Origin: Octopus vulgaris
Taxonomy: Eukaryota
Assembly: GCA_951406725.2 (NCBI GenBank)
Contig: OX597814.1
Coordinates: 180,792,001 to 180,856,000, forward strand
DNA: 64,000 bases
Reading direction: 5' to 3'
A model generated the notes under the pieces. That model saw only the letters and a program-made list of their open reading frames with translations. It did no database searches and was not told the origin of the DNA. A program made the translations under genes and the position numbers. Shown here piece by piece: positions 4,852-42,238 of this stretch (position 1 is its first letter; each line of letters opens with the position of its first letter).

Positions 4852-5012
4852 CACATTTTTTCTCTCTCTGTTTTTTCCTATTAATCTTTTCTGTCGAAGA
4901 GCGTAAGCTCGAAACGTAAAAGAGATTTTCATTCTTCCCGAGCGTTAAATTAATACACCTGCTTGTCGTTCCTACACTTGTCTTCGTTTTTTGGTTTTCT
5001 GTAAATTTGAAC
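4852..5012 (+). mobile_element. Short Penelope-like non-autonomous element with hammerhead-like motif (family H1)
   Basis: CTGTCGA-A-GAGC gtaa GCTC-GAAACGTA at 4891-4918. Homologous to 30461-30625 and 42045-42238; ends in ACTATATA. Confidence 0.65.
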
Positions 5013-5125
5013 TATATATATATAAATATAAGCAAAAATTTAGTTTCAGGTGAATTAAGTATTTAAGTTGAGGCGCCATAATTTAGTACAATATTACCCA
5101 TACATTTTCAAAATAAGGTGATTAA

Positions 5126-5631
5126 AATCAAAATAAGCAACAAGGATATCCAGAGGTAATGCAGTACGATCGTTTCAAGTGCAACTCCATTTAATTGAAC
5201 GATGCAATCATTACATCAATTTAAATGCAGAGCAATCCTCAGCAGCATAAAGACATACAATTAAATTAAATTAAAAGAGATGGACACGTTAGTATAATGT
5301 TTCCTGAAACCTCCAAGAAGGCAAGGATATAAACAAAGAATATGCTGACTTCACTTCAGCTTAGAAGCTATTCTTCGTGCTATTAATATTGTTATTATTG
5401 TGAAGCGAAGACAGCATGTTCTTTGTTTTTCTCCTTACCTTCTTGGAGGTTTTAGGTAAAATTATATTAATGTGTCCATCTCTTTTTATTTAATTCAACT
5501 CTATGTCTTTATGCAGCTGAGGATTGCTCTGCATTTAAATTGATGTAATGATTGCATTGTTCAATTAAATGGAGTTGCTTGAAACGATCGTACTGGATTA
5601 CCTCTGTCTATCCTTGTTGCTTATTATGATT
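5126..5631. mobile_element. Foldback of two inverted Penelope-like pseudo-LTR copies, each with a hammerhead motif
   Basis: Arms 5126-5358 and 5401-5631 are reverse complements (roughly 85% by eye) with a 42 nt spacer. Each arm has CTGAGGA...GAAACGATCGTA. Confidence 0.85.
5511..5598 (+). ncRNA. Type I hammerhead ribozyme candidate; mirror copy at 5159-5248 on minus strand
   Basis: Stem I ATGCAG/CTGGAT (5 of 6 pairs), core CUGAGGA, long stem II, GAA, helix III AC-GATC-GT, cleavage triplet GUA. Confidence 0.7.
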
Positions 5632-7096
5632 ATATATATATATATATATATATATACAAATTAAAATTAAGGATAAAATCTATACATGATTTTATCAGGT
5701 AGTTAGCGTGTAATAACCTATTAAGGCAAAAATTAATTTAGTACATAATTTTATAAGTATAATTATAAAAACTATATTATGAGCAACTAGCGAGTATTTC
5801 TACAGGTCGAGCCACACGCTAAAGAAAGATGCCAAATGGCGCAAAACTACCTGTAGTATCGTATAAATACGCGCTGAAAGCGAGGGAATAAAAGGAAAAG
5901 ATTCATGGAGTGATTCAAACATTAACATACACAGACATTGTTATTTTGTCGTAAATATATAGTCGTCGTAGTCGTTTAGGAAGGTATAGTTCTTGTTAGA
6001 ATAATTGTTCTTTTCCTTACAAAAGCCAAAAGTGCATTGTGCAACAGCAATTTAGAATTCCTGTCAAAGAAACATCTTTGCGGTCCAATTCTGATCTATG
6101 TATGTGGTATCTTACTGTCAATATTATAGGGTTCTGTGCATTGATTTCTCCGGGGCCCTATACTTCCGCTAAGACGGCTCTGTTCCGTAGTTCTCAGCAT
6201 TTTGTACTGTGAATTGCTTAAATATCAATATTGCGATACGATTAATCAACACTTTCTTGATCTGTTCTGTATTACGATAAATTCAAACAACTGCTTGAAC
6301 TTTCGTGGTCTATCCGGTCTTACAATAAATTTAATCAGTTGTTTGAACTCTCGGGATCAGATGCGATTCAATTCTTCAGTTCGACTGGACATTCAACCAG
6401 AGTAATAATGATATAAGTGGAGTGAGAATACCTGCAATTCGAAGTCAAAACCAGCATGTAGCCTTCGTTTCCTAGGAGTTTACCAACGATTTACCTATTA
6501 TTTTATACTACATAAGTGTACACTGCTTGTATACACGCATTGAGACTGGATGGTTAAGAAGTTCGCCTCATAGCTACTAGATTCTAGTTTCAGTCCTATT
6601 GCATGGCATCTTTGGTAAATATCATTTTCTACAGCTATGAGTCGACCATATTTTGTAACCTAAGTCGAGTTGACGAGAATTATATAGAAGACTATCAAAA
6701 GGGTTGTCCTTGTAACTCAAAAGTTTCATCCTTTGTCACACTCTCTGTTACTCTAATTCCGTTCGAGAATCACGTTAAGGGTACACGTCTCTGTGGAATG
6801 CTCAGATACTTACCGGGTAAATTGGGGGCAAGTAATTCAATTGATTTAAATAACTGAATCCCCATCGTCGAGCAACGAAGATCGTCGAACGACCTACCAC
6901 ATATTGCTTCTTGATTTTTAACTCCCAAATATCTATATTTTGTCTAACCTGAAAAGTTTTGGCAGTCGTTTGTATGTTGCACACGCGCGCATGCAGATAA
7001 GCAGGTAGACAGACAGAGCTAGATAGATAGATAGATAGATAGATAGATAGATAGATAGATAGATAGATAGATAGATAGATAGATAGATAGATAGAT

Positions 7097-7297
7097 AGGG
7101 GCTAAACATAGAGGGGACAAGCAAGGACAGACGAACGGATTAAGTCGATTACATCGACCCCTGTGCGTAACTGGTACTTAATTTATCGACCCCGAAAGAA
7201 TGAAAGGCAAAGTCGACCTCGTCGGAATTTGAACTCAGAACGTAACGGCAGACGAAATACGGCTACGCATTTCGCCCGGCGTGCTAACGTTTCTGCC
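7097..7297 (-). mobile_element. SINE family B copy between (GATA)n and (CATA)n tracts
   Basis: Near-identical to the other young B copies; both ends clipped. Confidence 0.9.
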
Positions 7298-39493: not shown

Positions 39494-40399
39494 GCCACTA
39501 TTTCTAACAAGTCGAAGGACTAGCAGCGGTTCCTTCATTGATTCATGTGGTTTGGATTTCTCCATTCACTGACAATGTGCTTGCTTGGAAAGTGTTAAAA
39601 CTGTATAAGAATGATGACTATTCGTTGCAAATGAGGAAAAGTGCAAGGTAGGTTATTTCATGTTTGTAAGATTAATTGAATTGAAATGAAAGTAGGTTGT
39701 TAATCGATGAGTACGCGATAAATAAACGGGCTCTGAGACAGTCGCAATTTGAGAGAGTTAACAGCATCAAACATTGTAGTGATCAGATGTCTGGTCAGAA
39801 AACGTCCTATGCAATGGTCTAATGACACGCAGACTTGACAGGCTAGCAGCATTGTCAGGAAATTCACACATTAGATACAGCGAAACTTCGTTATTGCTAA
39901 TGACCATAACTTTTTCCGACAAAGTTTTGATAAACAGGAGACCGGTAAGGGAAGATGTATGCGAGGTGTGTTTTGCAGATTTCCAGAAGCAAGTTAATTT
40001 CGCGATGAAAAAGAAAGGATATTCAAGCTGTTATTTAGCTATATCTACATATCTTTAAGTAGGTGCTGGTATAAATTGTTAGCCTGCTGTACCAAGATTA
40101 GTTTCTTCTTTATTAAAACTAGAGAAGAAACATATCAGTGCCCTATTCAGCAAGGGGGTTGTCTTTTACCTGTTTAGAATAAGCAAAATTGGGAATAAGT
40201 ACTAGTTCTAGCAATCACTGTGATTCGGGAGAAAAATGTCCTCAAAATGTTGGGATAAGGCCCACATTAAAAGATAGGACGCCACATGATTGACTGAAAA
40301 GTTCATTTTATAGTGTTCTTTTGGTGTCCAAGACTTTCAGAAATATGATCTAACTATATTTGATCTGACGTCTACCAAGGCCAGCAATTTCGGAGAAAG

Positions 40400-41016
40400 C
40401 GGTAGGTGGTGTTGGTGTTGGCGGCAGCGGCGACAGCGGCGGTAACGGCGGCAGCGGCGGCAGCGGCGGCAGCGGCGGCAGCGGCGGCAGCGGCGGTAGC
40501 GGCGGCAGCGGCGGCAGCGGCGGCAGCGGCGGCAGCGGCGGCAGCGGCGACAGCGGCGGTAACGGCGGCAGCGGCGGCAGCGGCGGCAGCGGCGGCAGCG
40601 GCGGCAGCGGCGGCAGCGGCGGCAGCGGCGGCAGCGGCGGCAGCGGCGGCAGCGGCGGCAGCGGCGGCAGCGGCGCCAGCGGCGGCAGCGGCGTCAGCGG
40701 CGTCAGCGGCGGCAGCGGCGGCAGCGGCGGCAGCGGCGTCAGCGGCGGCTGCAGGTGTGGCAGCGACGGTGGTGGCAGAGGCGGCAGCAGAGGCGGCAGC
40801 AGCAGAGGCGGCAGCAGCAGAGGCGGCAGCAGCAGAGGCGGCAGCAGCAGAGGCGGCAGCAGCAGAGGCGGCGGTGGCGGCAGCAGAGGCGGCGGTGGCG
40901 GCAGCAGAGGCGGCGGTGGCGGCAGCAGAGGCGGCGGTGGCGGCAGCAGAGGCGGCGGTGGCGGCAGCAGAGGCGGCGGCGGTAGAGGCGGTGACGGTAG
41001 AGGCGTGGCGGCGGCG
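40400..41016. repeat. GC-rich compound tandem repeat: (GGCGGCAGC)n, then 15-mer and 21-mer derivatives
   Basis: Direct reading; variant block GACAGCGGCGGTAAC repeated 117 bp apart. Confidence 0.97.
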
Positions 41017-42044
41017 TGGAGTAGTTGGGGTGTCATCTTAATTTATTGACCGCTTCCTTCCTCCGCTGCTCGAAGTTATGAAATACAAAAAAGACTCTGT
41101 CGCGACTTTTGTGAGTGTGAAGTTTGGCAGGTGGAAACTAGAAATGTGTTGCATATGATATATTTATCAGTCTTTGTGTCTATGTTTAACGATGTAAAGC
41201 CGATGTTGTGTCAAAAGGACAACTTAACAATTCAATAAATATAGACTGAACAAACAAATACAAACGGAAATAAATACTGGGTAGATATGATCGCCAAAAT
41301 AACTTGAAGTAGATGTTCCAGTAAAAAGAAGTAAATCATAAAAAGAAAACATTTGCGCGCGCGGGTGTGTGTGTATGTATTACACATCTAACAATTCTGT
41401 CAATTCATTGCCTTTGGCCGGTTGTTTATATATCGATTCTGAAAGAATGGAAAATGAAGTTGATCTCGGCTAGATTTGAATTCACTGTGCCGACAAAACA
41501 AATGCCGTTAAACATTCTTAAAGTGACGTTCAAAACCACACTTCAAATTCGCCGGCATGTGTCTGCGTGTATGTGTGCTAGATAAGGACTTCACAGTAGC
41601 CATTAGACCCACTGAATGTAATACAGGTAACCTTTGCATCAAGGAGACCCTCTTTACTACTTAACTGAGACAGTTTTAAACTATAGTAAACAGCTACACG
41701 AAGCAGACAGACCTTGTGTCACCTCTCATTTTTCCATGTGTCATGAAGCAGGAGTCATAACATCGAAATATCGAAATGCAAAAATACAAAGCAAGACTTC
41801 AACTGTTGTTCTGGCTTCAATTCGTAGTTCATTTTGTATTCATTTCGCACTTTTTCGGCCTTATCAAAAAAAGTTTTATCTATACTTCACCCTTACTACT
41901 CTCTCTCTCTCTCTCTCTCTCTCTCTCTCTCTCTCTCTCTCTCTCTCTCTCTCTCTATTTTTATATATATATATATATATATATATATATATATATATAT
42001 ATATATATATTCATACATACACACACACACACACACATATATAT

Positions 42045-42238
42045 AGGGAGAGTTTACGAAAAAAACAAAAGACAAAGACAGGTAGTGTACAAAACAAACA
42101 GATGTATTAGTATAACGCTCAGGAATAGAAAAAGTCTTTTACGTTTCGAGCCTACGCTCTTCTACAGAAAGGGACACAGAAAAAAAAACAAGGAGAGAAA
42201 AAAATGTGTGTAGTGGCTAACGATCTATCATGGCGCTA
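42045..42238 (-). mobile_element. Family H1 short element with hammerhead-like motif at 42134-42175
   Basis: Minus strand: GTCccTTT-CTGTAGA-A-GAGC gtag GCTC-GAA-ACGT-A-AAAGAC; flanked by TA tracts. Confidence 0.7.

Follow-up and report, generated by a model that had tools for sequence, protein, structure and literature searches.

The nine hammerhead motifs of the window, a stretch of 64,000 nucleotides of the Octopus vulgaris genome, are very probably minimal type I hammerheads located in the 3′ pLTRs of seven Penelope-like families, the copies in the window being 5′-truncated stubs. We consider them Penelope-like pLTR stubs and not a separate zoo of retrozymes because of their ORF-bearing parents, their 3′ ends fixed at (TA)n and their truncated or inverted 5′ ends. 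An earlier note on this DNA had recognized the hammerhead layout and proposed a link with Penelope-like elements; both are supported, and all families run upstream into Penelope-type frames. Its further idea, that the nine form a population apart made up of non-coding elements akin to retrozymes, is not supported, given the ORF-bearing parents, the few tandems and copy ends that ignore the cleavage site. The finding is mostly ordinary and has been published before; the supplement of PMC8557442, for instance, describes a hammerhead-bearing Hydra element of octopus in (TA)n. One family, G, might be an exception: its short copies usually begin at one spot and may propagate independently as a mini-element.

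Motifs, folds and families of the window

The earlier note had counted at least nine motifs of hammerhead layout, and all nine were located where it had placed them (Table 1). They correspond to eight insertions of seven families, A to G, and the supposed six or so unrelated elements must be corrected to this extent, two pairs of motifs being related: 5159 and 5511 are the two arms, 90% identical, of a single inverted insertion, and 4883 and 42134 represent subfamilies of family A, 77–78% identical. For family F, 39 further copies match the window copy at 100% identity along 132 nt, pointing to the young age of the family. As to the surroundings, none of the 10 ORFs of the window matched Pfam and no host exon was identified among them, tblastn with seven query pieces found no Penelope protein remnants in the window, and the repeat search of the window was dominated by microsatellites.

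Table 1. Insertions carrying hammerhead motifs (positions in the window; motifs are named by the position at which they were first reported)
Element	Position	Strand	Motif	Core / predicted cleavage nt	Hammerhead	Ends and flanks
Family A, 5′-truncated pLTR stub, older subfamily	4852..5012	+	4883	4891 / 4918	A6U; helix III ACGT	3′ end at (TA)6, 5013-5024
Family B (Hydra-type), arm with long 3′ end	5025..5370	-	5159	5242 / 5165	helix III ACGATCGT; long helix II; one mismatch in helix I	inverted pair
Family B, opposite arm, same insertion	5401..5630	+	5511	5517 / 5592	one mismatch in helix I	short 3′ end at (TA)13
Family C, pLTR stub	20306..20541	-	20356	20391 / 20362	U3-A8; helix III ACCGGT	(TA)22 on each side; Neptune/Nematis-type linker
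Family D, 3′ UTR/pLTR	28426..28820	-	28606	28637 / 28612	U3-A8; 2-bp helix II; helix III ACCGGT	cut at about the ORF stop
Family E (Hydra-type), pLTR stub	28825..29062	+	28921	28925 / 28958	family U4C, private A9G	another repeat abuts 3′ end
Family F (Hydra-type, young), stub	30249..30432	+	30303	30303 / 30341	4-bp helix III with 8-nt loop; 5′ strand of helix I lost, 2 bp remaining	inverted arm ~30249-30300, forward arm 30301-30432
Family G, pLTR stub, sister of A	30462..30616	+	30491	30495 / 30521	canonical core; helix III decayed to ATGT, palindrome lost	(TA)14 and (TA)28
Family A, pLTR stub	42045..42240	-	42134	42167 / 42140	A6U; helix III ACGT	TA-type runs on both sides

Could such motifs be chance matches within AT-rich repeat DNA? 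Five of the nine fail a strict descriptor, and the 150 Rfam matches listed, out of 208 for the window, contain simple repeats only and no hammerhead, which would fit chance. The strict descriptor nevertheless matched four times in the window, against 0.16 ± 0.42 (maximum 2) in 100 local dinucleotide shuffles, and a second one three times, against 0.23 in 40 shuffles. Since these descriptors were composed after the motifs had been seen, 600 kb sampled elsewhere in the genome provide a fairer test: 26 matches were obtained there, whereas 10 shuffles averaged 1.9. Thus the comparison with dinucleotide shuffles, which the earlier note had proposed, places motif frequency above chance. Moreover, with a descriptor leaving positions 3, 6, 7 and 8 free, a Watson-Crick 3-8 pair, which it does not request, was present in 22 of 24 matches of the 600 kb, although four pairs of these matches are not independent; 20 of the 22 have A6, and 17 of the 22 are followed by (TA)4 within 250 nt (background 21%). 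The helices are also restored in family consensuses. The probability that we leave to chance is practically nil, the shuffle comparison in the 600 kb and the 3-8 pairing count refuting it.

Family consensuses display the minimal type I hammerhead with its core, three helices and 3-8 pair, while five of the nine window copies are damaged. Helix III, announced as usually palindromic, is a perfect palindrome in six window copies and not in the other three; computed energies of helix III dimers range from -1.7 to -12.8 kcal/mol, and drop to 0 for 30491. Two departures from the core are family-wide, A6U in family A and U4C in family E, and all four Watson-Crick 3-8 pairs occur in this genome. Cores with A6U, G3-C8 or A3-U8 may, reportedly, already be listed by Lunse et al. 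(2017). The covariation that the earlier note had asked for appears across families, as the 3-8 pairing count in the 600 kb; within the family alignments the core is not evidently more conserved than its flanks, as expected from neutral decay.

Penelope-type parents

An endonuclease or RT frame lies directly upstream, on the same strand, in 27/30 loci of family D, 3/30 of C, 6/60 of A, 2/30 of E and 1/30 of F. For family B the count was 0/30, and 2/30 (L292 and L296) after walking upstream. Family G gave 0/30 in each of the first two upstream steps, and the third step reached an endonuclease in 6 of 8 loci; linkage of this endonuclease to the pLTR is found in L433 and L434. An HMM of endonuclease C termini had missed the parent peptide of G, its best E value at this position being 0.5, and a subsequent new search established the link. 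In L330, the endonuclease preceding a G copy belongs to family A; it turned out to be an unrelated neighbour and was rejected as a G link. The ORF is absent from most copies of these families, and the parents of B, E and F are linked through one or two loci each, with frameshifted or partial frames.

The frames of family D (744 and 813 aa) match Pfam RVT_1 with 32.3 bits, over the cut-off, and GIY-YIG below the cut-off (E 0.062); the family C endonuclease matches GIY-YIG with 23.7 bits, over the cut-off. Families A, G and F retain broken RT and endonuclease frames, B and E the endonuclease part only. At the F locus L313 the order is inverted pLTR, RT, endonuclease, pLTR. Together with 5′ truncation, an inverted 5′ pLTR and an optional 3′ tail, these frames place the families among EN+ Penelope-like elements. 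The Penelope homology that the earlier note had proposed to look for is therefore present, ORF-bearing Penelope-type parents having been found for all seven families.

By their linkers and the CCHH motif the families fall into two types. Families A, C, D and G possess a CX2-5CxxC linker and CCHH (L155, L318, L312, L432), and their proteins would be of Neptune/Nematis type, two clades inseparable by these motifs; the A and G parent proteins are ~25-31% identical to D-type proteins. Families B, E and F possess a CxCX5C linker (L313, L315, L251), with CCHH absent from the endonuclease by eye, and would be of Hydra type. The three Hydra-type frames scanned gave no relevant Pfam match, their typing relying on motifs and visual inspection, and the copies recovered stop short of the N-terminal RWK/DKT motif positions. 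The (TA)n insertion of the Hydra clade is observed in 30/30 loci of F and, for B and E, at two alternative ends.

Copy ends and spread

The 3′ ends are fixed at (TA)n, 38-93 nt beyond the predicted cleavage site, and in some families a second end lies further downstream. In five families, 53/60, 26/30, 28/30, 26/30 and 30/30 loci have a TA-type run after the 3′ end, against a background of 10%; the (TA)n targeting put forward in the earlier note is supported. Lower scores at the query's end, 14/30 for the 5511 family and 1/30 for the 28921 family, arise because most other copies end further on than the query, at about +74 to +108 nt and at about +31 or +56 nt, respectively. The 5′ ends form staggered ladders of truncation or are joined to an inverted arm (17/30 loci in F, 13/30 in B, 8/29 in E and 4/29 in C). 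In family F they cluster at the base of helix I (16/30). Altogether we estimate ~80,000 insertions of the seven families in the genome (range 46,000-127,000), in agreement with the many thousands predicted earlier.

Self-cutting does not set these ends: five of the nine window motifs show damage, and the 5′ end falls within 3 nt of the cleavage site in just 1 of 94 copies (0/36, in a set where families A and E are unrepresented and from which a family B row was removed because its reference end was misplaced, plus 1/58). The (TA)n tract is likely nicked by the element's own endonuclease, and an early stop of its reverse transcriptase likely leaves the 5′-truncated stub. As copies extend across the cleavage site at either end, we infer that copying begins at an internal site of uncut RNA; an internal start, the ‘tail’ and insertion without need of cleavage have been described (PMC11167929). 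Cutting by the hammerhead would require a dimer in tandem transcripts or the help of a protein, and in stubs that are solo and decayed the motif is probably inactive.

It has been argued that retrozymes derive from pLTRs (10.64898/2026.07.22.740005), and a true retrozyme does exist elsewhere in this genome: an ORF-less 359-bp tandem family (L352) with canonical core, (TA)n flanks and inverted 5′ part. The window motifs could likewise be ORF-less retrozymes, excising themselves as monomers, circularizing and being re-inserted by Penelope proteins. We hold this to be very unlikely, and largely refuted for the seven window families. L352 matches none of them, they have ORF-bearing parents, and their copies end without regard to the cleavage site. 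Non-LTR retrozymes are marked by tandem neighbours on the same strand; such neighbours were seen within 400 nt at only four distinct places, in several hundred overlapping matches. Animal non-LTR retrozymes (PMC7229834 and 10.64898/2026.07.22.740005) share with the window families the type I hammerhead, short repeats and a relation to pLTRs, but are ORF-less tandems, an organization displayed here by L352 alone, whereas the window families occur as solo stubs whose parents bear ORFs.

Family G deserves separate consideration. Its 5′ ends fall within -118 to -103 (16 nt) in 21/30 copies, and within -110 to -102 (9 nt) in 10/20 incidental copies. The pile-up adjoins a TCAKTY motif that resembles an initiator and has its A at -112; three copies start at this A, and long copies are scarce (2/30 beyond -120). 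In family A, 9/45 ends lie within -100 to -89. The G and F pile-ups are not explained by random truncation and count against the reading of the copies as simply truncated stubs. Promoters with Inr-like motifs lie in pLTRs, as reported in PMC2377424 and PMC3846280. It is tempting, if rather doubtful, to suppose that the common ~200-nt copy of G, perhaps also of A, is a SINE-like unit in which stubs beget stubs: the initiator of a solo pLTR, ~110 nt before the hammerhead site, would yield a short RNA that the parent protein re-inserts, uncut, into (TA)n, and would have done so tens of thousands of times. In that case the element's protein would use the hammerhead as a fold and not as a cutter, which would explain A6U in all family A subfamilies with helices kept. 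On the other hand, since the pile-up sequence resembles the TA target, microhomology joining, described for Penelope 5′ junctions, could yield the same hotspot; the short RNA could equally derive from the 3′ pLTR of full elements, solo copies not being sources; the G copy of the window is cut at about -60; and the family A reference has no match to TCAKTY. No fixed-start SINE dependent on Penelope emerged from our literature searches. Should transcription begin at the fixed start of G, a SINE-like passenger class would be added to Penelope elements.

Relation to described elements

Reading the motifs as pLTR stubs corrects the annotation of ~100,000 hammerhead-like motifs in this genome. The main text of a recent octopus repeat survey (PMC13282606) does not mention ribozymes (0 occurrences), and our literature searches found no genome-wide hammerhead survey in octopus. 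The young F copies, the four 3-8 pairs and the A6U and U4C cores offer a natural test series for the role of Penelope hammerheads.

Much was described for metazoan Penelope pLTRs by Cervera and De la Pena in 2014 (PMC4209133), whose account includes minimal hammerheads left by truncated elements, solo or on opposite strands, as well as U3-A8 cores and the dimer model. In common with that account, we find type I layout, short helix I, an extra base after A9, palindromic helix III, C3-G8 and U3-A8 cores and thousands of solo or opposite-strand truncated copies. Beyond the cores just named, A6U (family A), U4C (family E), and G3-C8 and A3-U8 in other families occur here, and copy number is about tenfold above its 2,000-9,000.

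Craig et al. 2021 (PMC8557442) provide the closest clades. Families A, C, D and G resemble the Neptune/Nematis elements presented there in their C-terminal GIY-YIG, CX4CxxC linker and CCHH; a microsatellite bias is described there for Neptune. The Hydra clade inserts in (TA)n, and its member Hydra-1_Obim carries a hammerhead. B, E and F share with the clade, in the features given there, the CxCX5C linker, (TA)n, a hammerhead near the 3′ end, a helix III of 3-4 bp and often U...U flanking helix II. Their likeness to Hydra-1_Obim was judged by eye. They are different families from that element, whose listed hammerhead differs. The AT-rich 3′ region of B measures 1.4-1.7 kb and its helix II ~58 nt, and F has an 8-nt helix III loop.

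Hammerhead motifs, their abundance and core variants

All nine hammerhead-type motifs claimed for the window in the earlier note were found, and they represent eight insertions from seven families of Penelope-like elements (A to G, see table); five of the nine copies are damaged. In the window, which is 36% GC and dense in microsatellites, a strict descriptor written after the motifs had been noticed gave 4 matches versus 0.16 in 100 local dinucleotide shuffles. The excess was also seen elsewhere in the genome, in 60 stretches of 10 kb picked at round coordinates (600 kb), with 26 matches, seven of them from one tandem array, versus 1.9 in 10 shuffles. 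In a second scan, core positions 3, 6, 7 and 8 were left unconstrained. Among its 24 matches, four pairs of which are two arms or two copies within one stretch, 22 displayed a Watson-Crick 3-8 pair (C-G 14, U-A 5, G-C 3); A6 was present in 20 of these 22, and (TA)4 lay ≤250 nt downstream in 17, versus a background of 21%. Since 3-8 pairing, A6 and nearby (TA)4 were not requested by the descriptor, the motif class is therefore real.

Features of the window and of one locus outside it
Feature	Position	Description
Family A	42134(-), 4883	hammerhead motifs
Family B	5159(-)/5511	hammerhead motifs
Family C	20356(-)	hammerhead motif
Family D	28606(-)	hammerhead motif
Family E	28921	hammerhead motif
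Family F	30303	hammerhead motif
Family G	30491	hammerhead motif
Inverted arms	5025-5630; 30249-30356	long RNA hairpins if transcribed, either strand
Family F inversion junction	30249-30432; also L218-L247	at helix I AGCT palindrome
TA tracts	28800-28825; 5013-5024; 30434-30461	unrelated families adjoin or share a single tract
Long inverted repeat	11238-11864; 15432-16057	two blocks, 90-99% complementary, flanking ~3.6 kb
Common repeat, ~240 nt	39085-39449; 2085-2701; 7097-7298; 17664-17958; 47072-47308	some copies tandem
GC-rich tandem repeat	40420-41005	9-nt-based, several frames open; Pfam scan of one frame without match
Broken frames	45813-46574; 51565-52826	presumably resembling Tc1/mariner transposase and non-LTR retrotransposon; Pfam scan without match
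L352 array	L352 2090-4760 (C1:20000001-20010000)	ORF-less 359-bp units, non-LTR-retrozyme-like

The seven families account for 20 matches in the 600 kb, or 17 insertions once three inverted pairs are merged. Extrapolated to the genome of 2.8 Gb (227 contigs), this gives about 79,000 insertions (46,000-127,000), in line with the many thousands of copies proposed earlier, while strict motifs of all families would number about 84,000-112,000. The window is ~4x denser than the sample in these families, which were themselves defined from the window.

Family A retains U at position 6, with a variable position 7 (48, 9, 7 and 4 of 91 copies), and most parsed copies of family E carry C4 (10 exact versus 3 with U4), 11 of 30 being unparsed. 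A6C and U4C have been reported as natural variants of low activity (PMC3088659); A6U is absent from the main text of that study. Other families, at L386 and further loci, carry G3-C8 cores (5 matches in all loci) and a Penelope 3′ region at L051 carries an A3-U8 core, so that all four Watson-Crick 3-8 pairs occur in this genome.

Association with Penelope-type frames

Many intact RT + GIY-YIG frames of 781 aa are present in the genome, and by walking upstream from the motifs all seven families were joined to a frame of this type, which bears out the proposed tie to Penelope-like elements. Each family search returned 536-2,920 first-look candidates, 40 of which were scored. For family D, a frame (744 and 813 aa) lies upstream in 27/30 loci, its stop ~12 nt ahead of the query start. 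Frames were found in 3/30 loci for family C, 6/60 for A (all six from a second search, directed upstream), 2/30 for E and 1/30 for F, the last (L313) in the order inverted pseudo-LTR (pLTR), RT, endonuclease, pLTR. Family B gave 0/30 at first and later 2/30, both loci sharing a Hydra-type endonuclease that lies 1.4-1.7 kb upstream. For family G, two rounds gave 0/30 and 0/30; a C-terminal endonuclease peptide was then located at the far end of the 3′ region in four of five checked loci, and the last search found the endonuclease in 6/8, linked to the pLTR in L433 and L434. These 3′ regions are CA-rich in family G (1.3-1.6 kb) and AT-rich in family B (L280, L281, L292; 1.4-1.7 kb), the latter made of diverged ~500-600-nt repeats.

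According to published motif criteria (PMC8557442), families A, C, D and G, with a CX4CxxC linker and CCHH motif, are of Neptune/Nematis type, and families B, E and F, with a CxCX5C linker, of Hydra type. One RT, judged by eye, resembles Hydra-1_Obim.

Copy ends and proposed mode of insertion

The 3′ ends of copies are constant and adjoin TA-type runs, while 5′ ends form a ladder-like series. Families C, D, F and G have fixed 3′ ends 56-93 nt beyond the predicted cleavage site and family B a short one at 38 nt; B and E display second 3′ ends farther downstream. Unrelated families sharing TA tracts suggest repeated insertion into the same microsatellite. Among incidentally met copies, 5′ ends ≤3 nt from the cleavage site were seen in 0/36 and 1/58 (two counts). 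We infer target-primed copying at (TA)n, which would begin at an internal site of the uncut RNA. Target-primed copying from an internal site has a precedent in vitro in an anole element; its hammerhead requires protein and is dispensable for insertion (PMC11167929). Palindromic helix III, with computed dimer energies of -1.7 to -12.8 kcal/mol in the window copies and 0 for 30491, would permit dimers in tandem transcripts, following the model in PMC4209133. Decayed solo stubs are likely inert.

Inverted 5′ arms occur in 17/30 loci of family F, 13/30 of B, 8/29 of E and 4/29 of C. Family F forward arms end at an AGCT palindrome, the 5′ base of helix I, in 16/30 loci, and inverted arms start 13-23 nt beyond the cleavage site; in these counts the query left out shorter copies and two locus pairs resemble duplicates. 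Family B junctions cluster by another AGCT palindrome, ~200 nt before the cleavage site.

The 5′ starts of family G are clustered, at -118 to -103 relative to the cleavage site in 21/30 loci (the query began at ~-60) and at -110 to -102 in 10/20 incidental copies; family A shows a weaker cluster (9/45). The family G cluster adjoins an initiator-like motif whose A lies at -112, and would fit either a short RNA made from the pLTR promoter or a hotspot of microhomology to the TA target.

Known systems and retrozymes

A 2014 study (PMC4209133) described minimal hammerheads with U3-A8 cores, solo and on opposite strands, that derive from truncated elements, and a 2021 study (PMC8557442) described Hydra elements in (TA)n, including one Octopus bimaculoides element with a listed hammerhead. 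A survey of octopus repeats reports 31 recently active Penelope-like families, its main text leaving hammerheads and ribozymes unmentioned (PMC13282606). Retrozymes are ORF-less tandems (PMC7229834, 10.64898/2026.07.22.740005), whereas the seven window families are not. Of the first interpretation, the Penelope link and the abundance are supported and a separate retrozyme-like population is not. In contrast, the 359-bp family at L352 matches the retrozyme description. Its units carry a canonical core with ACCGGT as helix III; of the hammerheads in the array, five are direct and two inverted, and (TA)n tracts flank it. In anatomy the array is a Penelope-type insertion. Many contigs hold comparable clusters, tandem and inverted (138 matches, 40 of 2,540 candidates being scored).
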